Shown here in pieces: positions 34,181 to 55,512 of a stretch of 64,000 nt of DNA; positions within the stretch are counted from its first letter, which is position 1; every line of letters begins with the position of its first letter. The position numbers were made by a program, and so were the translations under genes. The stretch lies in assembly GCA_918244965.1 (NCBI GenBank), contig CAKJYC010000049.1:22286-86285 (forward strand), given 5' to 3'. The stretch is from Clostridiales bacterium. Its GTDB lineage: Bacteria > Bacillota > Clostridia > Christensenellales > CAG-138. The notes under the pieces are model-generated. The model worked only from the letters and a program-made list of their open reading frames with translations. It was not told the origin of the DNA and did not search any database.

Positions 34181-34228
34181 ATTGCATGCGGAAATGATTC
34201 CGTGAAGTATCATTTCAGGAGGGAAATC

Positions 34229-35569: not shown

Positions 35570-35595
35570 TTGATCTCAAACGACTAAAATGATCG

Positions 35596-35624: not shown

Positions 35625-35647
35625 TGATGGAATAGAGGGAGGAATAC

Positions 35648-37477: not shown

Positions 37478-37479
37478 TT

Positions 37480-39161: not shown

Positions 39162-41084
39162 TCAATACTTTCTTGCGTCCTTAACGTGGGCGAGGTGATC
39201 GCGGTAGGCGTCGAGATTCTTCGGATTTTCGGAAACCTCCGTGTCGCCGACGCGCCACCAGGAGCCGTAGCCCTCGGTCATGGATTTCGGCAGCACGCGG
39301 ATGTCAAACACGACCGGAACGCCCTCGATCTTCTTGGCTTCTTTAATCGCGGCCTTCATTTCGTCGACGGTACGGATCGTGAACGCCCTGCACCCGTAAC
39401 CCTCGGCGATCTTTGCAAAGTCGACCGACATAAAGTCGCCGGAATGCGCGCCGTCCGCGCCGCGGAAGCGCAGCTCGGTGCACAGCGTGTCGTTGCCGTG
39501 GCCGACCTGCAGGTTGTTGATGCAGCCGAACGAGGCGTTGTTGAACACGCAGACGTTGATCTTCTTGTGCTCCTGCACGGCGGTCAAAAGCTCGCTGTGC
39601 AGCATGACAAAGCTGCCGTCGCCGACCATCGCATACACGTCGCGATCGCCGATCGCGTACTTGACGCCCAAAGCGCCGGAGACCTCATAGCCCATGCACG
39701 AATAGCCGTATTCCATGTTGTAGGTGTCGACGCCGCGCGCGCACCACATGCGCTGCATGTCGCCCGGCAGCGAGCCGGAGGAGCCGATCGCAACGTCGTC
39801 TTTGTCGATCGTGAAGTTGATCGCGCCGAGTACGGCGGTCTGGGTGAGGTCCGCATGCAGATCCTTTGCGAAGCGGTCCGCGCTCTTTGCGTTCGCGTCG
39901 TTGACCTCGGGCACGTAGCCGGGGCCGTAGGCGGTGTGCATGAGCCGGTCAAGCTCTTTAAACCAGCGGTCGCGCGCGTCCGTTATCTCGGTCGTATACG
40001 GGGCCTTGTAGCCGCCGAGCGCCGCAAGCAGCACCGGCAGCGCGCGCTTTGCGTCCGCGATCACCGGGACGGCGTCCATCTTGTACGCCTGGAATTCGCT
40101 GACGTTGATGTTGACAAACCTTGCGTCTTCACGGAACAGCCACTTGGACGCGGTCGTGAAGTCCGTATAGCGCGTGCCGACGCCGATGACGACGTCCGCC
40201 TCCTTCGCGATCTCGTTTGCCGCCGAGCAGCCGGTCACGCCGATGCCGCCGAGGTTCAGCGGATGGTCGTAGGGGATCGCGCTCTTGCCGGCCTGCGTCT
40301 CGCCGAACGGGATGCCGGTCGCTTCCGCAAATGCCTTGAATTCGGCGTGCGCTTCGCTGTAGCGGACGCCGCCGCCGCAGATCAGAAGCGGGCGCTTCGC
40401 GGCCTTGATGACGGCCGCGGCCTCCTCGATCGCCTCCGCGTCGGGCTGCCGCCGCGCAAGACGGTGGACGCGCTTTTCAAAGAACGATTCGGGATAGTCA
40501 TACGCCTCGCCCTCGACGTCCTGCGGGATCGCAATGCAGACTGCGCCGGTGTTCGCCGGATCGGTCAGCACGCGGAAGGCGGAGATCATCGCGCTCATCA
40601 GCTGTTCGGGACGAACGATGCGGTCCCAGTAGCGGCAGACGGCGCGGAACGCGTCGTTGGTCGAGATCGACAGGTCGTGCGTTTGCTCGATCTGCTGCAG
40701 CACCGGGTCGGGCTGACGGCAGGCGTAGACGTCGCCGGGCAGGATCAGCACGGGGATGTTGTTCGCAGTCGCGGTCGCGGCGGCGGTCACCATGTTGGCG
40801 GCGCCGGGGCCGACCGACGAGGTCACGGCAAAGATCTTTTTGCGCTTCATCTGCTTTGCGAACGCGACGGCGGTGTGCGCCATGCCCTGCTCGTTCTTGC
40901 CCATAAAGACCTTGAGCCGGCGCGTTTCCTGACGGAGCGCCTGGCCGAGACCGACCACGTTGCCGTGGCCCGGCAGCATGATCACGCCCTCGACGAACGG
41001 ATGCTCCTGCCCGTCGTAGGAAATGTACTGGTTTTCGAGAAAGCGCACCAATGCCTGCGCCATCGTCAAACGGATCGTTTTCAT
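39162..41084 (-). CDS. iolD: 3D-(3,5/4)-trihydroxycyclohexane-1,2-dione acylhydrolase (TPP-dependent)
   Basis: 640 aa. [20 protein letters not shown]...[11 protein letters not shown]..., TPP-enzyme architecture. Size and N-terminus are typical of IolD. Adjacent to iolB and iolE. Confidence 0.88.
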
Positions 41085-41096
41085 CTTGTCCTCCTG

Positions 41097-41888
41097 TCAA
41101 CCCTTGAAGATATGCTCGTTTGCGTCGGGCTTCCACAGCCACGCGTGCTCCGGATCGTCGATGCGCGTCTTTTTCCACGGATCGCCGTCCAGGTGCCGGA
41201 TGCCCCACGCGTAGCACATGGCGTAGCCGGGCGCGGCGACCTGCGAATGGAAGCCGTGATTGATGACCGCAAGCCCGTTGTGTCCGGTTTTGAAGATCTC
41301 ACCGTTGCTGAACCCCGCGCCGAAGCCGTTCGGATAGTCGAACCGGTAGAAATAGACCTCCGGCTGCGGATGGTGGTGCGGCGGATAGCTCGACCAGCGG
41401 CCGGGGAAGTTCAGCACCTCGCCCAGCACCATGTTCGAGAACGGCGCGTTGTCATAGTCGAAGAACGTCTTGATCTCGCGGCGCATGCAGCCCATCAGCT
41501 CGCCGTTCGCGCCCGCGTGCTGCACCTGCACCGTGTCCGGCGTGTACAGCACCGGTTCGTAGTCGCGCTCGTTTGCCGTCTGCTGGATGAACAGCTCGGC
41601 GTGCCCGTGCGCTTCGACCGTGATGCGGACCCTGCGCGGACAGAGCAGGCAGTACGCCTCGTGATAAAAGCAGTCGGGACGGCTCGCTTCGACGGCCTTG
41701 TCCGCAAAGCGCAGCGTGACCGCGCCCTCGAACAGCAGCACGGCCGTTTCCTTGTCCGGCTCCTCGATCGTATAGACGTCGCCTTCCTCCATGACGAGCA
41801 GGCCCACGTCCATCTGCGTGCCGAGATCGTCGACCTTCGCGTCGATATACGCGTTGTAGCCGCGATGCAGCTCCTTTTCAAAATACAT
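41097..41888 (-). CDS. iolB: 5-deoxy-glucuronate isomerase
   Basis: 263 aa cupin. GRWSSYPPHHH..., ...HLDGDPW...DPEHAWL, as in IolB/KduI-like proteins. Confidence 0.85.
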   Translation of the reverse strand: MYFEKELHRGYNAYIDAKVDDLGTQMDVGLLVMEEGDVYTIEEPDKETAVLLFEGAVTLRFADKAVEASRPDCFYHEAYCLLCPRRVRITVEAHGHAELFIQQTANERDYEPVLYTPDTVQVQHAGANGELMGCMRREIKTFFDYDNAPFSNMVLGEVLNFPGRWSSYPPHHHPQPEVYFYRFDYPNGFGAGFSNGEIFKTGHNGLAVINHGFHSQVAAPGYAMCYAWGIRHLDGDPWKKTRIDDPEHAWLWKPDANEHIFKG

Positions 41889-41897: not shown

Positions 41898-42806
41898 TCA
41901 CAGTCCCGTATGCTCCGCAATGTAGCGGCGGCCCTTGATCGCGTATTCGAGCGGATTCGCCTTGGCGGGGTCCTGCTCGGCCTCGACCAGCAGCCAGCCC
42001 TCGTAATGCGCGTCGGAAAGGACCTTGAACACCGGATCGAAATCCACGTCGCCGTCGCCCGGCACGGTGAACGCGCCGTTGCGCACAGCGGTCAGAAAGC
42101 TCCAGTTGTTTTGACGCGCCTGCTCGACGACCGGCAGCCGCATATCCTTCAGATGCACATGGCCGACGCGGTCGACGTATTTTTTGAGCATGGCCAGCGG
42201 ATCCTCGCCCGCAAAGGTGAAGTGGCCGGTGTCGTAGCACAGAAAGACGTAGCGCGGATCGGTGTTCGCCATCATGCGGTCGGTTTCCTCGGCGGTCTGC
42301 ACGACGGTGCCCATGTGGTGATGGAAGCACAGCTTGAAGCCGCGCTCATAAGCGACCTTGCCGAGCGCGTCGAGCCCCTTGCACAGGCGGTCCCAGCCGT
42401 CGTCGTTCAGCACGGGCTTTTTGCCGCCGGTCAGGATCGGCGTCTCGGTCTGGCCCTGGATCGACCAGCTCTGCTCGGAGACGTTGATGCGGTTTGCGCC
42501 GACGGCTTCGAGAAAGTCCAGCTCACGGGTAAAGTCCGCGATGTTCTCTTCGAGGGGCTTTGTGAGCAGGAAGGAGGAGAACCAGCGGCTTGCAATGCGC
42601 ATGCCGCGAAGATCCAGCTCCCACTTGAGTTCCTTCGGGTCCTTCGGGTACTTGTTGCCGATCTCGCAGCCGGTGAAGCCCGCAAGCGCCATCTCGCTGA
42701 CGGTCTGGCGGAACGTGTTCTCTGCGCCGAGCTCCGGCATATCGTCGTTGCACCAGCCGATCGGCGCGATGCCGAGGTGCACCTTTTCTTTGTCAAACAG
42801 CGCCAT
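41898..42806 (-). CDS. iolE: myo-inosose-2 dehydratase
   Basis: IAPIGWCNDDMPELG, HHHMGTVVQTAEETDRMMANTDP, FTVPGDGDVDF, VEAEQDPAKANPLEYA match B. subtilis IolE motifs from memory. Confidence 0.9.
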   Translation of the reverse strand: MALFDKEKVHLGIAPIGWCNDDMPELGAENTFRQTVSEMALAGFTGCEIGNKYPKDPKELKWELDLRGMRIASRWFSSFLLTKPLEENIADFTRELDFLEAVGANRINVSEQSWSIQGQTETPILTGGKKPVLNDDGWDRLCKGLDALGKVAYERGFKLCFHHHMGTVVQTAEETDRMMANTDPRYVFLCYDTGHFTFAGEDPLAMLKKYVDRVGHVHLKDMRLPVVEQARQNNWSFLTAVRNGAFTVPGDGDVDFDPVFKVLSDAHYEGWLLVEAEQDPAKANPLEYAIKGRRYIAEHTGL

Positions 42807-42818: not shown

Positions 42819-43991
42819 TCAGATGCGGGCGACGCCGCTCTTTCTTGCCGCTTCGGCAACTGCCGCCGCGACCGCCGGGCCGACGCGCTTATCAAACGCC
42901 TTCGGAATGATGTAGTCTGCGGAAAGCTCGTCGTCGGAGATCAGGTCGGCCAGCGCCTTTGCCGCCGCCATCTTCATTTCCTCGTTGATGTCGCTTGCGC
43001 GCACGTCAAACGTGCCGCGGAAGATGCCGGGGAACGCAAGGACGTTGTTGATCTGGTTCGGGTAATCGCTGCGGCCCGTCGCAATGACCTTTGCGCCGCC
43101 GGCTCTTGCGTCGTCCGGGAAGATCTCGGGCGTCGGGTTCGCGCAGGCAAAGATGATCGCGTCGCGGTTCATGGTCTTTACCATCTCGGTCGTGACCGTG
43201 CCGGGCGCCGAAACGCCGATGAACACGTCCGCGCCGACCAGCTGATCGGCAAGGGAACCGGGCTTGCGTTCGAGGTTCGTGACCTCGGCCATCTCCTCCT
43301 TGATCCAGTTCAGACCGTCGCGGCCCTTGTAGATCGCACCCTTGCGGTCGCACATCGTGATGTGACGGAAGCCTGCGGAAAGCAGCAGCTTCACGATCGA
43401 CACCGCCGCCGCGCCTGCGCCGGAGGTGACAACACGGACGTCCTCCTTTTTCTTGCCGACGACCTTCAAAGCGTTCGTGAGCCCCGCCAGCGTGATGACC
43501 GCGGTGCCGTGCTGATCGTCGTGGAAGATCGGGATGTCGCACTTTTCCTTCAGCTTGCGCTCGATCTCAAAGCAGCGCGGCGCGGAGATGTCCTCCAGAT
43601 TGATGCCGCCGAACGAGCCGGACAGCAGATACACCGCGTTGACGAACTCATCGACGTCGTGCGTCTTGATGCACAGCGGGAACGCGTCGACGTTGCCGAA
43701 CGACTTGAACAGCACGCACTTGCCCTCCATGACCGGCATGCCCGCTTCGGGGCCGATGTCGCCGAGGCCGAGCACCGCGCTGCCGTCGGTGATGACCGCG
43801 CAGAGGTTGTGACGGCGGGTCAGCTCGTAGCTCTTGTTGATGTCCTTCTGGATCTCAAGGCACGGCTGCGCGACGCCGGGAGTGTACGCAAGGCTCAGAT
43901 CGTCCTTGGTCGCGACGGGAACCGTTGCGATGACTTCGATTTTGCCCTTCCATTCTCCGTGAAGACGGAGCGATTCTTCCGCATAATTCAT
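42819..43991 (-). CDS. NAD(P)-dependent malic enzyme (short form, no PTA domain)
   Basis: 390 aa. LSLAYTPGVA, TDGSAVLGLGDIGPEAGMPVMEGK, FGGINLEDI, HDDQHGTA, GAGAAA. Confidence 0.9.
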   Translation of the reverse strand: MNYAEESLRLHGEWKGKIEVIATVPVATKDDLSLAYTPGVAQPCLEIQKDINKSYELTRRHNLCAVITDGSAVLGLGDIGPEAGMPVMEGKCVLFKSFGNVDAFPLCIKTHDVDEFVNAVYLLSGSFGGINLEDISAPRCFEIERKLKEKCDIPIFHDDQHGTAVITLAGLTNALKVVGKKKEDVRVVTSGAGAAAVSIVKLLLSAGFRHITMCDRKGAIYKGRDGLNWIKEEMAEVTNLERKPGSLADQLVGADVFIGVSAPGTVTTEMVKTMNRDAIIFACANPTPEIFPDDARAGGAKVIATGRSDYPNQINNVLAFPGIFRGTFDVRASDINEEMKMAAAKALADLISDDELSADYIIPKAFDKRVGPAVAAAVAEAARKSGVARI

Positions 43992-44021
43992 GATCGATTC
44001 TCCTTCAATGGTTTGATTTCT

Positions 44022-45272
44022 TTATGAAACGACGGTCGGCAGCGTCGAGCCGCCGTACGGCATCGCCAGCACCGTCGCGTTCGGTCCCAGTTTCAAAAAT
44101 GCGTGATCCAGCGCTTCCTGCGCGGTCTTATACGGTACAAGAAAGATCGACCGCACAAAGTCGTCGTCCAGCTCGGACACAAGATCGACCTCGGCCCGTT
44201 CCAGCACCATCGCGATCGCCGCGGCCTTGTGCCCGCCGAGACGGAATTCACGGCCGATGCGCTCGATCAGGCTGTGCGCCGAGGGCGCTTCGGTCATCCA
44301 TTGCTCGAACGTTTTTTCGCCGAGACCCTCACGGCACGAGCCGATCAGGATGATGACGCCGCCGTCGCGCACCGCGTGCTTTGCGTTGTCCAGCGCCTTC
44401 TGCGTTTGATAGAGGTTCAGGTCCTTCGGCGCGCCGCCCTGCGAAACCAGCACGATATCGGCGGGCGCAGAGAGTTCCTTGCGGTACAGCGTGTCGAGGA
44501 AGCTGCAGCCCTCGCGGTGCGCCAGTACGGCGTCGCCCGCGACGGCTTTCAGGATCTCCTTATGCTCGGAAAGCACGACGTTTACGATGAAGTCGATCCC
44601 GACCATCGCGCCGGCCTCCTCGATATCCATGCGCAGCGGGTTCGTATCGAGCGCGCCGGCCTTCGCCTCGGGCAGTACCATGCGGCTGTGGTTGGCCTGG
44701 ATCGCCGCGCGCGTGGACACGCCGGGCATGATCGCCTTTGCGCCGCCGGAATAGCCCGCAAAGTAGTGGTACTCGATGTTGCCGAGACAGATCCTGCGAT
44801 CGGCCTCCGCCACGACGCGCGTGATGTCCACGGGCGTCCCGCGCGAGGTCACGCCGTAGGAAACGCAGTCAAGGGGATCGCTGTCGACGCAGCGGATCTC
44901 GGCCCACGCGCGTTCGCCCGCAAGCCGACGCTTTTCCTCGTCGGTCTGACGCCTGTGGCTGCCGAGCGCGAACACCAGCGTGATATCCTTCGGATCCACG
45001 CCGCCCGCGTACAGCTCGTCCAGAAGGGCGGGCATGACCTTTGCGGTCGGCATCGGACGAGTGACGTCGCTCGTGACGATCGCCACCGTTTCGCCCGGAT
45101 GCACGATGTCGCGAAGCAGCGGGGTGCCGATGGGCGCCGAAAGCGCGCGTCTGACCTCCGCCTCGCCCGTAAGGCCCACCGGGACCTCGTTCGCGTGCAG
45201 CTCGCCGATCAGGTTCTGTTCCGGCACCTCGACCTCCTGAACGCCTGTGCCGAATCCGAAACGCAGCTTCAT
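44022..45272 (-). CDS. LarA-family nickel-pincer-dependent 2-hydroxyacid racemase/epimerase homolog
   Basis: 416 aa, DUF2088/LarA-like. ...IVTSDVTRP..., ALGSHR, HYFAGYSGGAKAIMPG (Lys at the position that tethers the NPN cofactor in LarA, from memory), LYQ..KAL. Confidence 0.8.
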   Translation of the reverse strand: MKLRFGFGTGVQEVEVPEQNLIGELHANEVPVGLTGEAEVRRALSAPIGTPLLRDIVHPGETVAIVTSDVTRPMPTAKVMPALLDELYAGGVDPKDITLVFALGSHRRQTDEEKRRLAGERAWAEIRCVDSDPLDCVSYGVTSRGTPVDITRVVAEADRRICLGNIEYHYFAGYSGGAKAIMPGVSTRAAIQANHSRMVLPEAKAGALDTNPLRMDIEEAGAMVGIDFIVNVVLSEHKEILKAVAGDAVLAHREGCSFLDTLYRKELSAPADIVLVSQGGAPKDLNLYQTQKALDNAKHAVRDGGVIILIGSCREGLGEKTFEQWMTEAPSAHSLIERIGREFRLGGHKAAAIAMVLERAEVDLVSELDDDFVRSIFLVPYKTAQEALDHAFLKLGPNATVLAMPYGGSTLPTVVS

Positions 45273-45275: not shown

Positions 45276-46238
45276 TTACTTTCTCTTGAGCACGGCCTTC
45301 GCCTGCTGCTCGATGTGCGCGGCGGTCAGACCGAAGCGCTCCATCAGATAGCTCTGCGTGCCGACCTCGCCGAACTCGTCCTCGACCGCGACGCACGCGG
45401 CGGGGACGGGGCAGCGCTCCGCAAGCACTTCGAGAATGTTGTTGTACAGGCCGCCGTGACGGTTCGCGTTCTCGGCGACGACGACCGCGCCGCATTTTTT
45501 CGCAAACGCTTCAACGGCGTCCGCGTCGATCGGCTTGATCGTGAAGCAGTCCACGACCGCGGCGGAGATCCCCTGCGCTTCGAGGGACGCGGCCGCCTTC
45601 ATGGCCTCGTGCAGCATCAGACCTGCGGCGAAGATCACGACGTCGCTGCCGTCGCGGAGCGTGATCGCCTTGCCGATCGGAAGCTCGCTGCCGTCCGCAT
45701 AGACGCGGGCGAGCTGCTTTCTGCCGACGCGGATATACTTGACGCCGGGGCGGTTCTGACACTGGCGCAAAACGCTTGCAAGGCACGCCGGGTCGGACGC
45801 GTCGATGACGGTCGCGCCGGGCAGCGCGTTGTAGAGCGCCACATCCTCAAACGGCATGTGCGTGCCGCCGTTCATCGTGGCGGTAACGCCGGGGTCGGTG
45901 CCGATCACGGTCATGTCGTTCTTTGCATAGCCGCCGGACAGAAAGACCTGATCGTAGCAGCGGCGGGAGGCAAACGTGCCGAAGCTGTGGATGATCGGCT
46001 TGAAGCCTGCGACCGCGAGACCGGCCGCCACGCCCGCCATGTTCGACTCGGCGATGCCGCAGTCGATCGCGCGTTCGGGATTCGCCTTCGCCCACTTCAG
46101 CGTGCCGGAGCAGCTCATCAGGTCGGCGTCGAGGAAGATCGCGTTCGGGTCGTGATCCACGATGTCGGCGACCGTCGCGCCGATGACGTCCTTGCACAGA
46201 CGGGGATCCAGTTCCCCGTTATAAACGATGTTCAACAT
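45276..46238 (-). CDS. Transketolase, C-terminal (pyrimidine-binding) subunit
   Basis: 320 aa. ...AIDCGIAESNMAGVAAGLA..., ...THMPFEDVAL.... 3-nt gap from the N-terminal subunit gene. Confidence 0.9.
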   Translation of the reverse strand: MLNIVYNGELDPRLCKDVIGATVADIVDHDPNAIFLDADLMSCSGTLKWAKANPERAIDCGIAESNMAGVAAGLAVAGFKPIIHSFGTFASRRCYDQVFLSGGYAKNDMTVIGTDPGVTATMNGGTHMPFEDVALYNALPGATVIDASDPACLASVLRQCQNRPGVKYIRVGRKQLARVYADGSELPIGKAITLRDGSDVVIFAAGLMLHEAMKAAASLEAQGISAAVVDCFTIKPIDADAVEAFAKKCGAVVVAENANRHGGLYNNILEVLAERCPVPAACVAVEDEFGEVGTQSYLMERFGLTAAHIEQQAKAVLKRK

Positions 46239-46241: not shown

Positions 46242-47084
46242 TCAGCCCTCCAATGCATCCAATTCCGCTTTCAGCTGCGCGGTCCAGCGCTCGAAGCGCT
46301 CGTCGTTTACCGGCATGCTGTGGTTCATCGCGGTGTTTTCGACCTCCGCGATGCCGTGGCCCTTCACGGTGTCCAGCACGATCGCGTAGGGCTTGTCGCC
46401 GCCTGCACGCGTGCGTTCGAGGGCGGCCGCGATCGCTTCAACGTCGCCGCCGTCGACCTTGACCGTGTCGAAACCGAACGCTTCCATCTTCGCGACGAAA
46501 TCGCCCATCGGCAGGACCTCGTCGAGATACCCGTCGAGCTGGCGCTTGTTCCAGTCGATCAGAACGACCAGATTTCCGAGCTTCTTCGCGCTTGCGAACA
46601 TGAAGGACTCCCAGCACTGGCCCTCGTTCGATTCGCCGTCGCCGACGATCAGAAAGACGCGGTTTTTGCGGCCCTTGATGCGATTGCCGAGCGCAAGCCC
46701 CGCCGCCTGCGAGGTGCCCTGTCCCAGCGAGCCGGTCGTCACGTCGACGCCGGGCGTCTTGGTGCGGTCGCAGTGGCTCGGAAGCCGCGTGCCGCCGCGG
46801 TTCAGGGTCTTGAGTTCCTCATACGGGAAGAACCCCTTGAGCGCGAGCGTGGCGTACACCGCCGGGCCCGCATGCCCCTTCGAGACCACGAGACAGTCGC
46901 GATCCGGCCATTTCGGGTCCTCCGGGCGGACGTTCATTTCGCGGCCGTACAGGACCGCCATCGTGTCGGCAATGCTCATCACGCCGCCGACGTGGCCCGA
47001 ACCGATCGAGTGGATCGCTTCAAGCGCGGCCATGCGGATGCGCGTCGCAAACGCCTGCAGTTGTTTTTTTTCCTGGATATCCAT
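46242..47084 (-). CDS. Transketolase, N-terminal (TPP-binding) subunit
   Basis: 280 aa. GSGHVGGVMS, SKGHAGPA, GSLGQG, GDGESNEGQ. Confidence 0.9.
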   Translation of the reverse strand: MDIQEKKQLQAFATRIRMAALEAIHSIGSGHVGGVMSIADTMAVLYGREMNVRPEDPKWPDRDCLVVSKGHAGPAVYATLALKGFFPYEELKTLNRGGTRLPSHCDRTKTPGVDVTTGSLGQGTSQAAGLALGNRIKGRKNRVFLIVGDGESNEGQCWESFMFASAKKLGNLVVLIDWNKRQLDGYLDEVLPMGDFVAKMEAFGFDTVKVDGGDVEAIAAALERTRAGGDKPYAIVLDTVKGHGIAEVENTAMNHSMPVNDERFERWTAQLKAELDALEG

Positions 47085-47093: not shown

Positions 47094-48347
47094 TTATTGT
47101 TGCGGCAGGGTCGAACCGTGCCGCAGGGCCTTGACGACGGGCAGCTCTTCGCCGCTCAGGAAGCGGATCAGCGCGCCGCCGCCGGTGCAGATATAACCGA
47201 TCTTGTCGGTCAGCTTGTATTTTTCGGTCGCCGTGATGCTGTCGCCGCCGCCGAGGACCGTAAAGCCCTCGGTGTCCGCAAGCGCCTGCCACAGCGACTT
47301 GGTTCCGTATTCGCTCGCTTCCTGCTCGAACACGCCCATCGGGCCGTTGACGAACACCGTTTTGGCCGAAAGGATGCAGGCGCGATACTTTGCCGCAGTC
47401 GCGTGTCCGATGTCGACCGCGCCGACGTCGCTCGGCATCATGTAGATCGACGCCTCGCGCCGTTCGCCGTTTTCGACCCACGCAAGGTCGTCAGGCAGCA
47501 GGATCCTGTCGCCGAACCGCTCGTAGAGCGCCTTCGCACGGTCGAAGAACTCGGCGTAGTTCGACTTGCAGATAAACGCGCGGCTATAGCTTCCGATCTC
47601 CTGTCCGAGCGCGATCAGGAAGATGTTTGCGACCAGGCCCCCGGTCAGGATCGTATCGGCGACCCCGCGCTCCAGGACCGTCTGCATCATCAGAAACGCG
47701 TCGGAGATCTTTGCGCCGCCGAGCGCGAACACGCACGGACGGGCGGGGTCCTCCATGACGGAGGAGACGGTGCAGTATTCCTTCTCGAACAGCCTGCCCA
47801 TCGCGGACGGCAGGATCTGCTCGAACCCGCACAGGCTCGGCTGATCGCGGTGCGCGGCGGCAAACGCGTCGCACACGTACGCGTCCGCAAGCGGGGCGAG
47901 CTTCTGCACCAGCAGCGTTTTTGCCTGCTGCTCGTGCGAAAGATGCAGCTTCATTTCAAAGAGCGTCTGCTCCTCCGCGACGAAGCGCACGTTGTCCAAA
48001 AGCAAAACATCGCCATCGCAGAGATCACGGATGGCTTGTCTTGCCGCGGGGCCGCAGACGTCGTCGATCCATTTGACCTCCCGGCCGAGAAGGCGGGAGA
48101 GGACCGCGGCGTGCGGTTTGGTCGTATAAAAATTCTTGTACTCGATGTCGCTGCCCTGATGCGCCAGCAGCACGACCTTTGCGCCCTTTTCGGACAGCTC
48201 GCGGATCGTCGGCACGCAGGCCGTGATGCGGTTGATGCTTTTCAGCGTCCCCGCATCACGATCCACGGGCTGATTGATATCCACGCGGCAAAGGACCGTT
48301 TTTCCGCGCACCGAGAGTTCGTCCAGCGTTCTGATGCCGAATCGCAT
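47094..48347 (-). CDS. pgk: Phosphoglycerate kinase family protein, archaeal-type sequence
   Basis: 417 aa. RVDINQPV, LLAHQGS (canonical H(Q/L)GRP), LLLDNVRF, FVNGPMGVFE, GGGDSI. Confidence 0.8.
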   Translation of the reverse strand: MRFGIRTLDELSVRGKTVLCRVDINQPVDRDAGTLKSINRITACVPTIRELSEKGAKVVLLAHQGSDIEYKNFYTTKPHAAVLSRLLGREVKWIDDVCGPAARQAIRDLCDGDVLLLDNVRFVAEEQTLFEMKLHLSHEQQAKTLLVQKLAPLADAYVCDAFAAAHRDQPSLCGFEQILPSAMGRLFEKEYCTVSSVMEDPARPCVFALGGAKISDAFLMMQTVLERGVADTILTGGLVANIFLIALGQEIGSYSRAFICKSNYAEFFDRAKALYERFGDRILLPDDLAWVENGERREASIYMMPSDVGAVDIGHATAAKYRACILSAKTVFVNGPMGVFEQEASEYGTKSLWQALADTEGFTVLGGGDSITATEKYKLTDKIGYICTGGGALIRFLSGEELPVVKALRHGSTLPQQ

Positions 48348-48359: not shown

Positions 48360-49418
48360 TTATTTCTTCTTGAATCTGCCGATCTTCAGGTATTCGTTCG
48401 TCTTTGCCGTGCCCTCTTCGCGGGTCAGCTGCATCTGCATCGCGGCGCGGATCGCGTCGATCGTTTCGGGGATCGTGACGCTCTCCTGCGGGATGTTGAT
48501 CGCGTACATGATGTCGTTGCCGCTCTCAACGATGCTGTCCTCCCACAGCCCGATCTCGTACATGTCGCCTCTGCGGTTGCCGAGATCGCGCGCGTACTTG
48601 AACAGGCTCGCGTTGCCCTTGAAGCCCTCGTCGATCGTGACGGTACGGATGCGCGGATGCGCGCGGAACGCTTCGAGCGCCATCTCGCGGGTGATCTTTT
48701 TGCCGTCTTTGGCGGTCGCCAGCACGGTGATGATGTGGCCGTGCGTGACCGGCGTGTGCACGAGGATGCCCGTCGCTTCGACGTGCGGCATGATCGTCAT
48801 CAGGTCGACCGCCTGATGCGACGGCGCCTTGTCGATCTGCAGCGCGTTGGTGAGGCCGCGGTGATAGTCGCCCGGATCCGCGACGCGGCGGATGATCGTG
48901 ATCGCGACCTTCTCGATGCCGATCGCGCGGTCAAGGCAGTCGACCGTGCGGATCAGGCCCGTCGTGTTGCAGCTGGTCAGCTTGAGGTAATCCTGACCGA
49001 CGCCCTTTTCATAGTTCGCATAGCCGTGGAAGAACACGTCCGCGACGGAGTTCTTTTCGCCGCCCTGGAAGATCGCCTTGACGCCGACCTTCTGATACAG
49101 CTCCTTGTTCTTTGCGCCGACGCCGCCCGGCGAAGAGTCGAGCATGATATCGACGCTTCTGCAAAGCTCCTCGAACGTGCCCGCAACCGGGATGTCATAG
49201 CGGTCGAACGCTTCACGGTCCGCGCCGTCGACGAGGTAGAGATTGTATTTGACGCCGTTTGCGCCGATCATGTCGTTCTCGCGCAGCGCGCGGATCGACA
49301 GTGTGGGCGCGAGGTCCGCAATGCCCACCAGCTCCATGTCGCCCTGCATGGCGACGCCGTCGGCCAGACGCTGACCGATCGTGCCGTAACCGGCGACTCC
49401 GACTCTGACTTTAGCCAT
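48360..49418 (-). CDS. gap: Type II (archaeal-type) glyceraldehyde-3-phosphate dehydrogenase family protein
   Basis: 352 aa from ATG 49418, with AAAGGAG 6 nt upstream. MAKVRVGVAGYGTIGQRLADGV...MELVG and the active-site SCNTTGL (Cys150) are hallmarks of archaeal GAPDH, not bacterial GapA (SCTTN). Confidence 0.8.
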   Translation of the reverse strand: MAKVRVGVAGYGTIGQRLADGVAMQGDMELVGIADLAPTLSIRALRENDMIGANGVKYNLYLVDGADREAFDRYDIPVAGTFEELCRSVDIMLDSSPGGVGAKNKELYQKVGVKAIFQGGEKNSVADVFFHGYANYEKGVGQDYLKLTSCNTTGLIRTVDCLDRAIGIEKVAITIIRRVADPGDYHRGLTNALQIDKAPSHQAVDLMTIMPHVEATGILVHTPVTHGHIITVLATAKDGKKITREMALEAFRAHPRIRTVTIDEGFKGNASLFKYARDLGNRRGDMYEIGLWEDSIVESGNDIMYAINIPQESVTIPETIDAIRAAMQMQLTREEGTAKTNEYLKIGRFKKK

Positions 49419-49432
49419 ATGCTGCTCCTTTC

Positions 49433-50446
49433 TCAGATCTCGTCGATGCGGACGGGACGGTTTTCCTTGAGGGACTTGCTGCACGCAAGCGCCAGCTTGA
49501 TGGACAGAAGGCCGTCCTCGATGCCGACCCACGGTTCCTTGCCGTTCTCGACGCAGTCGATGAACTCGCGGACCTCCGCCTGATACGAGCCCATGTAGCG
49601 CTCAAGGAAGAACCACAGCGGCTTTTCGCCCGTCACGCCGTCCACCGTGGACAGCACGATGTTGGACGCGGAATCGTTCGCGTTCTGCACACAGCCCTTC
49701 GAGCCGAAGACCTCGCCGCGCTGATCGTAGCCGTAGACCGCCTTTCTGGAGCCGTCGATGGTGGCAAGCGCGCCGTTAGAGAGCTTCAGCGTGATCGTCG
49801 CGGTGTCCACGTCGCCCGCTTCGCCGATCGCCGGATCGATGAGGCACGCGCCCTGCGCGTACAGCTCGACGATCTCCTGACCGGAGAGGTAGCGCACCAT
49901 GTCGAGGTCGTGGATCATCATGTCCATGAAGATGCCGCCGGAAACAGCGACGTACTTGGCGGGCGGGGGCTCCGGATCGCGCGAAGAGATGCGGACGAAC
50001 TGCACCTCGCCGATCTTGCCGTCCTCGATCGCCTTGCGCATCGCGCGGTAGTTGTGATCGTAGCGGCGGTTGAAGCCGACCTGATAGACGAGCTTCTTCG
50101 GGCTCGCCGCGAGCGCCGCCTTGACCTCTTCGATCTTTGCGATGCTCTGGTCGATCGGCTTTTCGCAGAAGATGTGCTTGCCCGCGGCGATCGCTTCAAG
50201 CGAAAGCGGGGCGTGCTGATCGGTCGACGCGCAGATCAGGACCGCGTCGATGCGGTCGTCCTCAAGGATCTTGCGATAGTCCGAATATACGTTCTCGATG
50301 CCTGCGGACTTTGCCCACGCGGCGACCTCCGGCTTGATGAACGGGTCCGCGATCGCGAGGATCCGCGCGCCGGGAACGCCGGTGAGAATGCTCTTTGCGT
50401 GGACCTGACCGATGCGGCCCGCGCCGATAATACCTACATTGACCAT
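49433..50446 (-). CDS. iolG: myo-inositol 2-dehydrogenase (Gfo/Idh/MocA family)
   Basis: GIIGAGRIGQVHAK, IFCEKPI, VGFNRRYD, SRDPEPPPAKY...GGIFMDMMIHDLDM closely resembles rhizobial IdhA/IolG from memory. Confidence 0.85.
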   Translation of the reverse strand: MVNVGIIGAGRIGQVHAKSILTGVPGARILAIADPFIKPEVAAWAKSAGIENVYSDYRKILEDDRIDAVLICASTDQHAPLSLEAIAAGKHIFCEKPIDQSIAKIEEVKAALAASPKKLVYQVGFNRRYDHNYRAMRKAIEDGKIGEVQFVRISSRDPEPPPAKYVAVSGGIFMDMMIHDLDMVRYLSGQEIVELYAQGACLIDPAIGEAGDVDTATITLKLSNGALATIDGSRKAVYGYDQRGEVFGSKGCVQNANDSASNIVLSTVDGVTGEKPLWFFLERYMGSYQAEVREFIDCVENGKEPWVGIEDGLLSIKLALACSKSLKENRPVRIDEI

Positions 50447-50497: not shown

Positions 50498-52063
50498 TCA
50501 TTCGCCGTACGGCTCGCCCTTGCCTTCGACGAGCGAGGCATAGGTGCGTTGGATCTTTGCCCAGTTCTGGTCGCGGTCGAGCGCGACGCCTCTGCCGACG
50601 CCGGACACGATGAGACCCGCGCCCTTCTGCTCAAGCATTTCGCCGAACTCGCGCAAAAGCGCGGGCGCGCTGCCGGGCTCGGTGGAGCGGCCGTCGAAGA
50701 TGACATGCACGAACACGTTTTCGACGCCCGCCTTCTTCGCCATATCGCACAGCGCGAGCGGATAGTCGATCGACCCGTGCGAGGACTTTTTCGTGAGCAG
50801 CGCAAAGAGATGCAGCGCCGTGCCGCGCTCTTTGACGCCGTTCAGCGTGTGCAGAAACACCGGGTTCTCCGCAAACGAGCCGTCCTTCATCGCGTTGTCA
50901 AGGCGCACGTCGTCCTGCAGGACCACGCGGCCGGAGCCGAGATTGATGTGGCCCGCCTCGGAATTGCCCGTCTTGCCCGCCGCAAGACCGACCGCCGGGC
51001 CGGACGCTTCGAGCTTCGCGTAGGGATACTCCCGAAGCAGCGCGTCCCACGCGGGCGTGTCCGCCGTAAAGATCGGGTTGTTGTCGGTCGGAAGGTCGAG
51101 ACCCCAGCCGTCGCAGATGAGCAGTAAAACCTTGTTCGGCTTTGCAAAGCGGAACAGCGGCGTGCCGGTCATTTCCGCGGGCGCGGGAAGGCCCATTGCG
51201 GACAGCACCGTGGGCGCGACGTCGCAGAGTCGGCCGCTCGTTTCGAGCTGTTCCGTGCCGTCGCCGATCGCGATGCAGGCGACGAGATTCGTCGTGTGCG
51301 AAACGTGCGGCTTGCCCTCCGGCGTGTGCAGAATCTCGATGTTGCCGTGGTCCGCGGTCACAAGTACAGTATAGCCCTTTTCGCGCGCGTACGCAACGGT
51401 TTTCCCGACATATTTGCTGATCGCTTCGGCTGCGACCGGCTTTGCCGCGTCCGAGGACGTATGGCCGATGACGTCGCCGTTTGCGAAGTTCGTCACGATG
51501 AAATCGTAGCCCTTGTCCAGCCCGCCGCACAGCGTTTCATACACCTCCGGCAGCTTCAGCTCCGGCACCGTTTCAAACGGCACGCCCTTGGGCGAGGGGA
51601 TGCGGATGTCCGTCTCGCCCTCGAACGGCTTCTGATTGCCGCCGTTGAAGAAGAACGTGACGTGCGCAAACTTTTCGCTCTCGGCAAGGTGCATCTGCGT
51701 CCTGCCGTTTTCACTCAGCACCTCGGCGAGCGTCTTCTGCACCTTGCTCGGCGCAAAGGCGATCGGCAGATAGGTGTATTTTTCGCTGTACATTGTCAGG
51801 ATCACGAAGTCCAGCGGATCGAGCTGCGTTCTCTCGAAGCCCTTGAACGCCGGATCGGTGAACGCATCGGTCAGCTCGGTCTCGCGCTCGCCTCTGCGGC
51901 AGCAGAAGATCACGCCGTCGCCGGGACGAACGAGACCGACCGGGCTGCCGTTTCGGTCGACAAGGTTCAACGGCTCGAAATGATACTCCGAGGCGACGGA
52001 GGCAAAGCGCTTTTGGGCAGCGCGGGCCAGCGCGTCGCCGCCGGCAAACTTGTATTCGCTCAT
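50498..52063 (-). CDS. Circularly permuted 2,3-bisphosphoglycerate-independent phosphoglycerate mutase (iPGM)-like phosphotransferase
   Basis: 521 aa from ATG 52063, with AAAGGAG 8 nt upstream. Residues 1-304 carry canonical C-terminal iPGM motifs (ESEKFAHVTFFFNGG, ANGDVIGH, TADHGN, SHTTN, EMTG). Residues 308-521 carry canonical N-terminal motifs (LLLICDGWG, GNSEAGH, LHLFALL, DGR, LDRDQNW). Confidence 0.8.
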   Translation of the reverse strand: MSEYKFAGGDALARAAQKRFASVASEYHFEPLNLVDRNGSPVGLVRPGDGVIFCCRRGERETELTDAFTDPAFKGFERTQLDPLDFVILTMYSEKYTYLPIAFAPSKVQKTLAEVLSENGRTQMHLAESEKFAHVTFFFNGGNQKPFEGETDIRIPSPKGVPFETVPELKLPEVYETLCGGLDKGYDFIVTNFANGDVIGHTSSDAAKPVAAEAISKYVGKTVAYAREKGYTVLVTADHGNIEILHTPEGKPHVSHTTNLVACIAIGDGTEQLETSGRLCDVAPTVLSAMGLPAPAEMTGTPLFRFAKPNKVLLLICDGWGLDLPTDNNPIFTADTPAWDALLREYPYAKLEASGPAVGLAAGKTGNSEAGHINLGSGRVVLQDDVRLDNAMKDGSFAENPVFLHTLNGVKERGTALHLFALLTKKSSHGSIDYPLALCDMAKKAGVENVFVHVIFDGRSTEPGSAPALLREFGEMLEQKGAGLIVSGVGRGVALDRDQNWAKIQRTYASLVEGKGEPYGE

Positions 52064-52077
52064 GATCGGTTCTCCTT

Positions 52078-52854
52078 TCAATGGATGCGCGGCGTCGGGT
52101 CCTCAGCGGTTTCGGGACAGAAGCGCCCGTCGCCGGGGAAGACGCGCAGCAGCTCGTCAAAGTGATGGATGATGCAGTCGGGCCGGTTCTCCTCGGTCAG
52201 CTTGAATTCGAGCCCGCCGGGGTATTCCGCGCCGACCGTGCCGGCGAAGCAGGACTGCTTCGCGCCGATGATGTCGCGCTTCAGGTTGTCGCCGACGAAG
52301 CAGCTCTCCTCCGGCCGCACGCCGGCTTCCGACAGCGCGAGGAAATAGATCGCGGGATGCGGCTTTCGGAGCATCGTCACCGAGCTTTGCTGCACCGTGC
52401 AGAACAGGTCGCGGATGCCGTCGCGATCGAGCCACTCGTCAATCTCGACCGTGCCGATCAGGTCGCTGATGATGCCGACGAGGTAGCCGCGCGTGCGCAG
52501 CTCCTTCACGGTTTCAATGCCCTTTTCGACGACCACGCGCTCGCCCTTCGCCCTGCGGAAGCAGTAGGTCAGCTCGACGGCGGCCTTCTCGATTTTCTCA
52601 CGGTCCCATTCCGGCACGAGCCAGCGGGTCCAGAGCATCGTTTCCGGCGCTTCGCACATGTACTTCAGCGCCCATTCACGGTAGCCGTCGTAGCGCTTGT
52701 TCAGGAAATCGTAGAACGCGTCGGCGTCCATGTCGGTGCCGCACAGTTCCTTGATGCGCTCGCGCGCCTGCTTGATAAACGGACGGTTGTCCTCGTCGAC
52801 CACGCGGAATGTGCCGCCGAGATCGAGAAAGATCGCCTTGATGTTTTCTTTCAT
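52078..52854 (-). CDS. HAD-IA-like hydrolase, tandem paralog 4
   Basis: FLDLGGTF, IISD, LRKPHPAIY, VGDNLKRDI. Start at MKENIKA, with GGAGGG upstream, 2 nt after the upstream stop. Confidence 0.8.
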   Translation of the reverse strand: MKENIKAIFLDLGGTFRVVDEDNRPFIKQARERIKELCGTDMDADAFYDFLNKRYDGYREWALKYMCEAPETMLWTRWLVPEWDREKIEKAAVELTYCFRRAKGERVVVEKGIETVKELRTRGYLVGIISDLIGTVEIDEWLDRDGIRDLFCTVQQSSVTMLRKPHPAIYFLALSEAGVRPEESCFVGDNLKRDIIGAKQSCFAGTVGAEYPGGLEFKLTEENRPDCIIHHFDELLRVFPGDGRFCPETAEDPTPRIH

Positions 52855-52856
52855 AT

Positions 52857-53624
52857 TCAGACCCTCCGGACCTTGTCCCATGCGACGTGCGGCGCCTTCG
52901 GGAAGATCTCCTTGAGTTCGTTGAAGTCGAAGATGACCGCGTCGGGACGGTTCTCATCCGTGATCTTCTCCTTCGCGAGCTTCTCCGGCGTCGTGTACAG
53001 GATGAACATGCCGTAGCCCGCAAGGCGCGTGCCCTCGACGTCGCGGTTCAGGTTGTCGCCGATGTAGACGCAGCGCTCCGGGCGAACGCCCAGGAGGTCG
53101 CACGCCTTGTTGGAGATCGCGGGATCGGGCTTTCTTATGCCCTCGACGCACGAGAGCAGCACCGCGCCGAAATACTGTTCAAGCCCGTCGGCCTTGAGCC
53201 AGCGCGGGATCTCCTGCGAGGTCACGAGGTTTGAGATGATGCCGAGCTTGTAGCCGTTCGCGTACAGGTCTTTGATCGACTGCGCGCCGTTCGGGGCGAC
53301 CACGCGGCGGCCGTCCTTGTTGCGGTACTCGATCGTCAGCTCGATCGCATTCTTTTTGATCAGCTCACGGTCGTATTCGGGCGTCAGCCACTTGGTCCAA
53401 AGCTCCTCCTCCGGCGCTTCGCGCATCGTCTCGAAGCACCACTTGCGGTAGCCCGCGTAGCGGTAGTCGAGGAATTTGCAGAATTCGTCCGGGTCGCCTG
53501 TTTCGCCGCACATTTCGGCGATCTTGCGGCGCGCCTCCGCTTCAAACGCGGCGTCGCGCTCCACCAGACGCAGCGTGCCGCCGAGATCGTAGAAGATCGC
53601 GTCAAATTCTCGTTCGTTTGCCAT
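52857..53624 (-). CDS. HAD-IA-like hydrolase, tandem paralog 3
   Basis: FYDLGGTL, IISN, IRKPDPAI, IGDNLNRDV. Confidence 0.8.
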   Translation of the reverse strand: MANEREFDAIFYDLGGTLRLVERDAAFEAEARRKIAEMCGETGDPDEFCKFLDYRYAGYRKWCFETMREAPEEELWTKWLTPEYDRELIKKNAIELTIEYRNKDGRRVVAPNGAQSIKDLYANGYKLGIISNLVTSQEIPRWLKADGLEQYFGAVLLSCVEGIRKPDPAISNKACDLLGVRPERCVYIGDNLNRDVEGTRLAGYGMFILYTTPEKLAKEKITDENRPDAVIFDFNELKEIFPKAPHVAWDKVRRV

Positions 53625-53636
53625 ACTTCGTTCTCC

Positions 53637-54371
53637 TTATTTGTTTTCGTCCGAAAGGGGCGGGAAGATGTCCAGAAGCTGACCGATCCGGGTGATCGTG
53701 TAATCGGGCTGCAGAATGATTTCCTGCGGCTCGTTTTTGATCGTGTCCGGCTCGTCGATGCGGATCATCAGCGCATAGCCGGCCTTGCGCGTGCCCTCGA
53801 CGTCGCGGATCGGATTGTCGCCGACGTACGCGCACTGTTCGGGCGTCTTGCCGATCGCGCGGCAGGCGAGGTGATAGATCGCGGGGTCGGGCTTACGAAG
53901 CCGTACCTTGGAGGACAGGATGACCGTCTTGAAGTAGTGCGCCACGCCGTCGGCGATCATCCAGTCGGGGATCTCGGTCTCGGTGATCGTGTTCGCGATG
54001 ATGCCGAGCGTGTAGCCGCGGCGGTCCAGCTCGATGATCGTGGACTTCACGTCGTCGCGCGGGACGCGCCGTCCATCATGGTCGCGCCACAGACGCGTCA
54101 GTCTGCCTGCGTGCGCGCACACGCGCTCCGGATCGTAATCCGGCAGCAGGTGCTGGCTCCAGAGCTCCATCTCGCCCGCGTCAAGAAGCGTCTTTTTCAC
54201 CATGCTGCGGTACTTCTTCCAGCGCGCTTCGAGCTTCTCGAAGAACACGTCGTGCGGCTCGGTCGCGCCGACCAGCTCCATCAGTTCCCGCTCCGCCGCA
54301 TCGGAGAATTCCTTGTCCTTGATGACGATGCGCAGCGTGTTGCCGACGTCAAAGAAAATGGTGTCCGTCAT
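53637..54371 (-). CDS. HAD-IA-like hydrolase, tandem paralog 2
   Basis: FFDVGNTL, IIAN, LRKPDPAIY, VGDNPIRDV. Start at MTDTIFF, with GGAGAGAGG upstream. Confidence 0.8.
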   Translation of the reverse strand: MTDTIFFDVGNTLRIVIKDKEFSDAAERELMELVGATEPHDVFFEKLEARWKKYRSMVKKTLLDAGEMELWSQHLLPDYDPERVCAHAGRLTRLWRDHDGRRVPRDDVKSTIIELDRRGYTLGIIANTITETEIPDWMIADGVAHYFKTVILSSKVRLRKPDPAIYHLACRAIGKTPEQCAYVGDNPIRDVEGTRKAGYALMIRIDEPDTIKNEPQEIILQPDYTITRIGQLLDIFPPLSDENK

Positions 54372-54402
54372 TGTCCTCTCTCCTTTTCTGTATTGCAAAC
54401 TG

Positions 54403-55161
54403 TTATTGGTGATTCCGCTCCCGGAGGATCCCCGGCAGCTCGTTCAGTTCCCGGATCACATAATCGGCCTTCGGCGCGTCCGGCCCCTGAAAGGCGACGT
54501 CGCGGTGGGCGATCGAGGGGTTGTTGATGCGCACGATCAGGCCGAGGCCCGCATTGCGCGCGCCGAGCACATCGCGGGAGATCGTGTCGCCGACATAGCC
54601 GGTCTCCGCCGCCGTCACGCCCATGCGGGAAAACGCGATCTCAAAGATCCTCGGATCGGGCTTGCGGATCCCGGTCTCGCTCGACATCACGATGCATTCC
54701 ATGTACTGCGCGATCCCGTATTCGTTCATCATGTGCGGGACGAGCGAGGTGGAGATGATGTTGGAGATGATGCCCTGCCGGACGCCCATCGCGTGGATCT
54801 CTTTGATCGTTTCGACCAGATACGGCTTTCGCATGTTGATCATCCGCTCGTAGTCATAGAGGAAGCTCAGCTCCTCGGCGATCGGGGCAAGCCGCTCCTC
54901 GCCGATGTGAAACTCCTTGAGGTAGTATTCGTTCCAGATGACGGGGGCGGGCAACTCGGTCTTCTCGCGCTCGCCGCGGTGCTTGTACGCTTCGCCGTTC
55001 TCGCGCAGCAGCAGCTTCAGCTGTTCCGGCGTCGTGTCGAGCACGATGCCGTAATCGTTGAGCCTGCGGATCAGCCGGTCGGCAAAGCGAAGCTCCGAAT
55101 CCGCGGTGCGCGTGGCGGACTGCAGTGTTCCGCCGAGATCGTAAAGCAGCGTCGTGATCAT
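54403..55161 (-). CDS. HAD-IA-like hydrolase, tandem paralog 1 (first gene of the operon)
   Basis: LYDLGGTL, IISN, IRKPDPRIF, VGDTISRDV. Start at MITTLLYD, with GGAGG upstream. Confidence 0.8.
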   Translation of the reverse strand: MITTLLYDLGGTLQSATRTADSELRFADRLIRRLNDYGIVLDTTPEQLKLLLRENGEAYKHRGEREKTELPAPVIWNEYYLKEFHIGEERLAPIAEELSFLYDYERMINMRKPYLVETIKEIHAMGVRQGIISNIISTSLVPHMMNEYGIAQYMECIVMSSETGIRKPDPRIFEIAFSRMGVTAAETGYVGDTISRDVLGARNAGLGLIVRINNPSIAHRDVAFQGPDAPKADYVIRELNELPGILRERNHQ

Positions 55162-55190
55162 GGTTTCGCCTCCGAATTTCCCCATATTTA

Positions 55191-55241
55191 CGAAAACGTT
55201 TGCGCTATCATAATTGTAAACCGCTTACCGGTTTTTGTCAA
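55191..55241 (-). promoter_or_regulatory. Promoter plus operator of the 15-gene HAD-iol operon
   Basis: Minus strand: TTGACA (55241-55236), 17 nt, TACAAT (55218-55213), 7 nt, then GCGCAAACGTTTTCG (55205-55191). Confidence 0.7.
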
Positions 55242-55428: not shown

Positions 55429-55479
55429 TTGACAAATGGCGGGAACGGTTGTAAAATGAATTGTCTGAAAACGTTTGCA
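55429..55479 (+). promoter_or_regulatory. Promoter plus operator (cre-like) of the LacI-family regulator operon
   Basis: TTGACA (55429-55434), 17 nt, TAAAAT (55452-55457), 8 nt, then TGAAAACGTTTGCA (55466-55479). Confidence 0.7.
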
Positions 55480-55512
55480 CTGCATTTACGGAATCTGATT
55501 TGGGAGGATACT

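Follow-up and report, generated by a model that had tools for sequence, protein, structure and literature searches.

A predicted malate racemase in an inositol operon of gut or rumen Clostridia and a possible transketolase route from myo-inositol to D-malate

Results

The inositol operon and its LarA gene

We analysed a 64,000-nucleotide stretch of DNA from an uncultured gut or rumen Clostridiales bacterium (GenBank assembly GCA_918244965.1, contig CAKJYC010000049.1, positions 22,286 to 86,285 of the forward strand; hereafter the window), and in particular a LarA-family gene and the malic enzyme gene that follows it, which both lie within an operon for inositol catabolism (iol). Annotation by Pfam or NCBIfam scans of 51 open reading frames (ORFs) places them in a unit of 15 genes on the minus strand, extending from 55185 to 39162, in which no intergenic gap exceeds 51 nt. 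In 5' to 3' order, the operon encodes four HAD hydrolases, a circularly permuted protein resembling cofactor-independent phosphoglycerate mutase (iPGM-like), IolG, a type II glyceraldehyde-3-phosphate dehydrogenase-like protein (GAPDH-like), a phosphoglycerate kinase-like protein (PGK-like), the N-terminal and C-terminal subunits of a split transketolase, LarA, malic enzyme, IolE, an IolB-like protein and IolD.

The LarA gene (44022..45272) encodes a 416-aa protein with Lar_N (PF09861, E = 7.4e-65) and LarA_C (PF21113, E = 9.4e-20) domains. From its stop codon TAA (44024-44022), a 30-nt spacer (43992..44021) in which a GGAG ribosome-binding site can be read leads to the ATG (43991) of a short NAD(P)-dependent malic enzyme of 390 aa (42819..43991), predicted to be specific for L-malate. 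The latter matches Pfam malic (E = 9.6e-32) and Malic_M (E = 2.3e-24), and among solved structures it is most similar to the NAD-dependent malic enzyme 5CEE (E = 1.4e-135). Three of the surrounding iol proteins score above their NCBIfam cutoffs: the inositol 2-dehydrogenase IolG (49433..50446; TIGR04380, 448 bits, cutoff 355), the inosose dehydratase IolE (41898..42806; TIGR04379, 406 bits, cutoff 290) and IolD, the ring-cleaving hydrolase dependent on thiamine diphosphate (ThDP) (39162..41084; TIGR04377, 905.7 bits, cutoff 715). They are accompanied by an IolB/KduI-family isomerase, a putative divergent IolB (41097..41888; Pfam KduI, E = 3.3e-46). An earlier note on this DNA, made from the letters alone, had described a 416-aa LarA homolog with a GG-x-K motif, placed 30 nt before a malic enzyme gene with both genes inside an iol operon, and this description proved accurate throughout.

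The LarA homolog is a predicted malate racemase

The window LarA reaches 557.9 bits with the curated NCBIfam model NF052593 ('nickel-dependent malate racemase, LarAH6 family'), whose cutoff is 500. Its top match among solved structures is Mar2 of Thermoanaerobacterium (6D6Z; 400.8 bits, E = 6.3e-119, 46.8% identity), whereas lactate racemase structures reach at most 208 bits, about half of the Mar2 score. The earlier note had named membership of a lactate- or sugar-acid-specific LarA clade as grounds for abandoning its proposal of a malate racemase; the scores place the protein elsewhere, as the rival NCBIfam models remain below their cutoffs (LarAH5, 393.6 bits against 462; LarAH10, 363.8 against 540; LarA, 329 against 460), and so does the hexonate epimerase model. 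Lactate racemase and sugar-acid (hexonate) epimerase were dropped as readings of this gene on account of these scores.

The residues of LarA and Mar2 that carry out catalysis and bind the cofactor, nickel-pincer nucleotide (NPN), have been named (PMC7583248), and all of them are kept in the window LarA, namely the catalytic D72, H108, H174 and K298 and the NPN-binding R75, K184 and H200 (LarA numbering). The GG-x-K motif takes the form YSGGAKA and aligns to the cofactor-tethering K181 of Mar2 (K184 of LarA). We compared the protein with its best 80 relatives, from more than 540 found in a scan of one genome per prokaryotic species. These orthologs are 69-87% identical to it, the closest at 87%, and nearly all of the 80 loci are from gut or rumen Clostridia, labelled as Oscillospiraceae, Christensenellales and Lachnospiraceae. 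The motifs SDVTRP, GSHR, HYF, GGAK, NH and QK can be aligned with Mar2 and LarA and do not vary among the 80 orthologs; the constancy of the catalytic and cofactor residues at this level of divergence indicates purifying selection on an active enzyme.

Malate racemases (MARs) are recognised by a signature of H or Q followed by K at the positions of LarA W358/T359, where the lysine binds the second carboxylate (PMC11770544). The window LarA has GGHKAA at this site, with H-K invariant in the 80 orthologs. The loop Y172-K173 of Mar2 is replaced by Y-F in the window LarA and all 80 orthologs, but the loop positions after the second catalytic histidine are reported to vary among MARs (PMC11770544), so the Y-F loop does not disqualify the protein as one. 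More generally, the window LarA resembles Mar2 of T. thermosaccharolyticum (PMC7583248) in its two-domain fold family, its catalytic and NPN residues, the Q-K of helix 11, the (G/A)HK of helix 14 and a frequent malic enzyme neighbour, and differs from it in having H-Y-F in place of H-Y-K and GGAK in place of GGHK. A malic enzyme gene neighbours 15% of the members of group 6, to which Mar2 belongs, and was the contextual clue behind its discovery. The model score, the closest structure, the MAR signature and the malic enzyme neighbour together support the prediction that the LarA homolog is an NPN-dependent malate racemase of the Mar2/LarAH6 type, as the earlier note had proposed. The racemase itself would thus be an additional member of a known group.

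LarA and malic enzyme form a recurrent pair

We compared gene neighbourhoods by tblastn of the window operon proteins against the 80 loci. LarA and malic enzyme are adjacent in about 35 of them, and because the adjacency recurs to this extent, the pairing is not due to chance. In L035, L040 and L060 the two genes occur without GAPDH-like or PGK-like genes, and a divergent tripartite ATP-independent periplasmic (TRAP) transporter, DctP/Q/M, lies alongside (at about 5.6-9.9 kb in each locus); the arrangement probably serves to take up external D-malate or some similar acid. In L040, a 312-aa ORF, possibly a regulator, is found between the pair and the TRAP genes. Homology and the recurring adjacency support a combined role of racemase and malic enzyme in converting D-malate to L-malate and then to pyruvate, and we suggest that the pair behaves as a D-malate-to-pyruvate adaptor with different upstream feeders.

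A conserved module connects LarA to inositol genes

Counts of the wider module were restricted to the 29 loci with at least 8 kb on either side of LarA. The GAPDH-like and PGK-like genes are directly upstream of LarA in 18 of the 29. The split transketolase is also present in 16 of these 18, at least three iol genes in 15, and the malic enzyme in 8. Every iol-bearing locus of the 29 carries the GAPDH-like/PGK-like pair (15/15). Gene order differs between relatives: it is iolE-B-D-G-transketolase-GAPDH-PGK-LarA in L029 and L032, iolEBDG-GAPDH-PGK-LarA-transketolase in L062 and L076, and, behind a divergent DeoR gene, GAPDH-PGK-transketolase-LarA-malic enzyme-iolE-B-D-G in L081, an independently annotated NCBI assembly. 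Other carriers of the cluster include OY762278.1, OY771363.1, GCA_030536515.1 and the cultured mouse isolate MGBC000121 (locus L080). That the genes stay together while their order varies argues for selection on co-location, and thus for a common function.

Of the canonical lower pathway, IolC, IolJ and IolA are absent from the 51 ORFs of the window in the Pfam or NCBIfam scans, and also from L081, the sole relative with annotated neighbours. The single PfkB-like ORF in the window (57175-58131) has no NCBIfam match at E <= 1e-10 and is therefore not IolC.

Two loci carry the unit of transketolase, GAPDH, PGK, LarA and malic enzyme with no iol genes nearby (L041, 1656-5941; L073, 4474-7606). 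In both, the genes preceding the module encode two zinc alcohol dehydrogenases, a TIM barrel resembling xylose isomerase, a member of the creatininase family and an ABC transporter for sugar, a context that implies a second feeder substrate. Annotation of the recurrent neighbour families across the 80 loci, with ORFs filtered by GC3 > GC1 > GC2 (G+C content by codon position), covered the larger families and a minority of the smaller ones; besides the genes above, these were regulators of the DeoR and LacI types, ABC transporters for sugars, a protein with a PHP domain, TRAP transporters and housekeeping genes.

The transketolase, GAPDH-like and PGK-like enzymes differ from their relatives in central metabolism

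The PGK-like protein (47094..48347; Pfam PGK, E = 3.2e-113) is an archaeal-like paralog that finds its closest solved structure in P. horikoshii PGK (2CUN), and it shares 34% identity with the canonical housekeeping PGK of a related genome, L070. In PGK, the 3-phosphate is held by a basic patch of Arg38, His62, Arg65, Arg122 and Arg170 (PMC7729029). Four of the five are kept here and Arg65 is replaced by Ser (AHQGSD) in all full-length orthologs that were aligned, leaving the full patch incomplete; the equivalent position is K or R in Pyrococcus, Bacillus and housekeeping PGKs, and the L070 enzyme keeps GKP.

The GAPDH-like protein (48360..49418) starts at an ATG (49418) with an AGGAG ribosome-binding site and has 352 aa rather than 390. 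The mechanically called ORF (48360-49532) opens at a GTG and overlaps iolG by 100 nt. The protein scores 394 bits with NF003251 (cutoff 185) and is closest in structure to the archaeal type II enzymes 2CZC and 1CF2. Its homologs number at least 120 matches, and those listed are near-identical gut sequences at 88-95% identity, none of them archaeal. We used published site definitions for type II GAPDH in M. fervidus numbering (PMC12041015), with archaeal reference residues transcribed from the structure-search alignments. The protein keeps Cys140, His219, Arg167, Arg168 and His193, and its second phosphate site is incomplete, as SHHGPD has become SHQA[V/L]D, with His194 changed to Gln, in all full-length orthologs that were aligned. 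An Asp stands where NADP-dependent archaeal enzymes carry Lys, which suggests that NAD+ is used.

In the split transketolase, the N-terminal ThDP-binding subunit (46242..47084; Pfam Transketolase_N, E = 5.3e-50) has the GDG..N ThDP motif and the active-site histidines, as seen in its translation. The C-terminal subunit (45276..46238; Pfam Transket_pyr and Transketolase_C) is closest to the Carboxydothermus split transketolase 6YAJ and has orthologs in 38 loci. Its substrate-channel motif is non-canonical: tHaG..GEDGxSHQ of 6YAJ and human transketolase gives way to tDpG..x[MLF]NGGTHM in every cluster-linked ortholog except two divergent ones, and the Asp...NGGTHM motif may mark a distinct catabolic transketolase subfamily. 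Overall, all three enzymes look catalytically intact, with clade-fixed changes at substrate-contacting positions, and these changes fit altered substrates without proving them.

A possible route from inositol to pyruvate through D-malate

Based on these findings, we consider it somewhat probable that LarA and malic enzyme would make up the last part of a substitute lower branch of inositol catabolism, one that stands in for IolC, IolJ and IolA. Its gene assignments are made by homology, and the chemistry from the transketolase step onward draws on comparative genomics, active-site patterns and stereochemical logic. In this scheme, IolG, IolE, IolD and the IolB-like isomerase would convert myo-inositol to 5-dehydro-2-deoxy-D-gluconate (DKG). 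The split transketolase would take C6-C5 of DKG as a glycolaldehyde unit and hand it to an acceptor, by analogy glyceraldehyde-3-phosphate, which would become xylulose-5-phosphate. What remains of DKG would be (R)-3-hydroxy-4-oxobutanoate, or D-malic semialdehyde. The GAPDH-like enzyme would oxidise this aldehyde, with phosphate and probably NAD+, to D-malyl-1-phosphate, with formation of NAD(P)H; the PGK-like enzyme, predicted to be an acyl-phosphate:ADP kinase that forms D-malate, would then transfer the phosphate to ADP and yield ATP. Finally, the racemase would convert D-malate to L-malate, and the malic enzyme L-malate to pyruvate and CO2.

Read from its CH2OH-CO end, DKG is D-threo (3S,4R), as are fructose and xylulose; this follows from the configuration of D-gluconate and fits the fact that IolJ, which acts on the phosphate of DKG, is a homolog of fructose-bisphosphate aldolase. 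As a D-threo ketol, DKG qualifies as a transketolase donor, while DKG 6-phosphate would be unsuitable because its ketol hydroxyl is blocked. D-malic semialdehyde is glyceraldehyde-3-phosphate with -COO- in place of -CH2OPO3. The configuration of DKG predicts D-malate, so that a racemase would be needed ahead of an L-specific malic enzyme, and LarA would act only at malate because no earlier intermediate has a 2-hydroxyl beside a carboxylate. The earlier note had remarked that the gene pair implies an unconventional intermediate, as canonical inositol catabolism makes no malate. That remark was right and can now be made specific: the transketolase/GAPDH-like/PGK-like module plausibly makes D-malate from the product of IolB.

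Several observations weigh against this route. The IolB-like protein, for all its strong Pfam KduI/IolB match, scores 93.5 bits with TIGR04378, below the equivalog cutoff of 205. Three close relatives (L005, L014 and L043) have iol-GAPDH-PGK-LarA with no transketolase or malic enzyme in the cluster; there, either the transketolase is not always linked or the aldehyde comes from another enzyme. The GAPDH-like protein exceeds the curated type II cutoff and retains the substrate-phosphate residues Arg167/Arg168, so it could be an ordinary GAPDH, and the iPGM-like gene in the window operon would fit a set of lower-glycolysis isozymes. We found no description of an inositol-transketolase-D-malate route in the literature searched, which covered few subscription journals, so earlier publication is possible.

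Some of the same observations favour a simpler explanation, in which LarA and malic enzyme are a self-contained salvage system for D-malate or a related C4 hydroxy-dicarboxylate and are merely co-transcribed, the GAPDH, PGK, iPGM and transketolase being ordinary isozymes for triose phosphate from IolC and IolJ encoded elsewhere. The pair does exist without the other module genes, beside TRAP transporters; the GAPDH-like protein passes its model; the GAPDH-like, PGK-like and iPGM-like genes of the window operon represent three consecutive glycolytic steps; and the transketolase is missing from the cluster of some relatives. However, the adjacency of GAPDH, PGK and LarA is kept across lineages and gene orders, and more tightly than that of LarA and malic enzyme. 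Moreover, no IolC, IolJ, IolA, triose-phosphate isomerase or enolase lies alongside, among the annotated neighbours and in L081; the three supposedly glycolytic proteins are paralogs that have diverged, and their changes at phosphate-contacting positions do not vary; and the iPGM-like gene occurs in only about six close relatives. We therefore regard plain salvage as unlikely.

It is less likely still that the LarA homolog acts on another 2-hydroxy acid that the PGK-like enzyme makes, for example glycerate, 3-phosphoglycerate or tartrate, with malate as a side activity. The literature does report that Mar-type enzymes also epimerise tartrate and that some LarA homologs prefer glycerate, and the loop here is Y-F where Mar2 has Y-K. 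Against this stand the MAR-defining H-K together with the reported variability of the loop, the fact that the malate racemase model is the only NCBIfam model above its cutoff, and the malic enzyme gene that follows LarA in many loci; DKG and 5-deoxyglucuronate, whose structures have no 2-hydroxyl, are excluded as substrates.

A non-functional or NPN-free LarA in a genome devoid of larB, larC and larE is very improbable: LarB (AIRC), LarC (DUF111), LarE (PP-loop) and an evident nickel transporter are indeed absent from the 51 ORFs of the 64-kb window, as the earlier note had said of the three biosynthesis genes, and larB/C/E are likewise missing from the annotated recurrent neighbours of the 80 loci, which counts against the route as well, but the catalytic and cofactor residues are invariant in 80 orthologs at 69-87% identity, and according to the literature lar genes are often unlinked to LarA homologs and are not among the listed neighbours of group 6.

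Other features of the locus

The head of the operon consists of four tandem HAD-family hydrolase paralogs of 253-267 aa (52078..55185, minus strand), which match Pfam Hydrolase and HAD_2 and, weakly, NCBIfam HAD subfamilies. They are followed by the iPGM-like metalloenzyme of 527 aa (50498..52081, minus strand), which matches TIGR01307 in two stretches of swapped order: residues 47-310 correspond to positions 240-504 of the iPGM model, and residues 395-523 to the start of the iPGM_N domain. The same permuted arrangement is found at 74-86% identity in L004, L005, L006, L014, L027 and L043 and, being conserved in these six relatives, did not arise as an artefact of assembly. Upstream of the operon, TTGACA-17-TACAAT (55213..55241, minus strand) agrees with a sigma-70-like promoter at 11 of 12 consensus positions, as a consensus match only. 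A LacI-family regulator (55429..56523, plus strand; Pfam LacI and Peripla_BP_3) is transcribed divergently, and after it come a PHP-domain protein (56520-57260, plus strand) and the weak PfkB-like kinase (to 58131). Nine other loci, and L081 too, have the PHP gene next to the cluster.

Further phosphatase-type genes are scattered through the window, encoding an HAD protein (19301-20077), a Cof-type HAD protein (33198-34025), a 995-aa purple-acid-phosphatase-like protein (27838-30825) and an EEP-family protein (18057-19178). Together, the HAD, phosphatase and PHP genes hint at a locus for the use of inositol phosphate or phytate.

The region is flanked by an operon for a multi-subunit Mrp-type cation/proton antiporter (8701-18034, minus strand) and by a membrane H+-pyrophosphatase gene (30738-33131, plus strand). 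Two ABC systems (20110-24538 and 34142-39102, both plus strand) have unusually long, apparently fused double permeases of 630 and 609 aa, and each includes an ORF of 460-475 aa that has no Pfam match and could encode a substrate-binding protein. The second of the two runs convergently toward the end of the iol operon. Near the start of the window lies a lysine riboswitch (1722-1897, minus strand; Rfam RF00168, 84.6 bits). Downstream of it are a 133-aa ORF (1263-1664), which Pfam does not match, and a gene for a beta-keto acid cleavage enzyme (BKACE, 425-1252). The riboswitch and BKACE suggest lysine-regulated lysine fermentation genes.

Discussion

The racemase described here falls within a known group, whereas the reading of the whole operon would amount to a new and apparently undescribed form of inositol catabolism. 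Its upper half, with IolG, IolE, IolD and a divergent IolB-like isomerase that would lead to DKG, corresponds to that of the Bacillus subtilis pathway (iolG, E, D, B, C, J, A). The lower halves differ: the kinase IolC, the aldolase IolJ and the malonate-semialdehyde dehydrogenase IolA of B. subtilis are not in the window operon, which has transketolase, GAPDH-like, PGK-like, malate racemase and malic enzyme genes instead. A 2026 study of Dysosmobacter welbionis reported that iolJ is absent and proposed IolC with a class II aldolase; it makes no mention of transketolase, GAPDH-like, PGK-like or LarA genes.

Two-subunit transketolases in sugar-catabolic operons include SqwGH of the sulfo-TK pathway and AptAB, the apulose-4-phosphate transketolase, which cleave an unusual ketose and pass the C2 unit to glyceraldehyde-3-phosphate. 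Compared with these by description only, the enzyme in the window has a carboxylated deoxy-ketose as its predicted donor and a C-terminal subunit with Asp...NGGTHM. The next two steps would follow the logic of glycolytic GAPDH and PGK, and of aspartate-semialdehyde dehydrogenase and aspartokinase, in which an aldehyde, phosphate and NAD(P)+ are linked through an acyl phosphate to the transfer of phosphate to ADP; the aspartate pair shows that this logic works on a C4 aldehyde bearing a carboxylate. Unlike the glycolytic pair, the enzymes here are archaeal-type paralogs in bacteria, with His194 changed to Gln and Arg65 to Ser, and their predicted substrate is not phosphorylated.

A chemical parallel is the L-carnitine pathway of Acinetobacter baumannii, in which the conversion of malic semialdehyde to D-malate and pyruvate was shown experimentally (PMC11353897). 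The intermediates proposed here are common to both, from (R)-malic semialdehyde through D-malate to pyruvate and CO2. In Acinetobacter, however, the aldehyde arises from a monooxygenase rather than by the transketolase cleavage proposed here, and it is oxidised by a non-phosphorylating aldehyde dehydrogenase without gain of ATP, followed by a D-specific decarboxylating D-malate dehydrogenase. We propose in its place phosphorylating enzymes of the GAPDH and PGK types, with gain of ATP, followed by a racemase and an L-specific malic enzyme.

Malate racemases are described as the largest group of the LarA superfamily, and the role suggested for them in the literature is growth on external D-malate. 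A full-text search that covered few subscription journals returned no link between malate racemase and inositol catabolism, and a gene inside an iol/transketolase/GAPDH-like/PGK-like operon, unlike the context of Mar2, is unreported for group 6. Also in contrast to the Mar2 context, the window operon offers a proposed endogenous source of D-malate. If our reading is correct, internal production of D-malate would explain why the racemase exists, and the operon would give this largest group of nickel-pincer racemases its first physiological source of D-malate from within the cell.

Both myo-inositol and phytate occur commonly in the diet, and inositol fermentation in the gut has been linked to the production of short-chain fatty acids. 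Judging from gene content and active-site patterns, we regard the chances as evenly balanced that in many gut and rumen Clostridia myo-inositol, and possibly other sugars, is fermented through a so far undescribed transketolase route. In it, GAPDH and PGK paralogs of archaeal derivation would bring about substrate-level phosphorylation with a C4 aldehyde acid that carries no phosphate, from D-malic semialdehyde by way of D-malyl phosphate to D-malate and ATP. The proposed route skips the ATP-consuming IolC step and adds one that yields ATP, which matters for anaerobes, and it would be overlooked by annotation pipelines in which its genes are called 'GAPDH', 'PGK' and 'transketolase'. If true, the route would show clearly how glycolytic enzymes were re-tooled to work on the carboxylate analogue of their own substrate.

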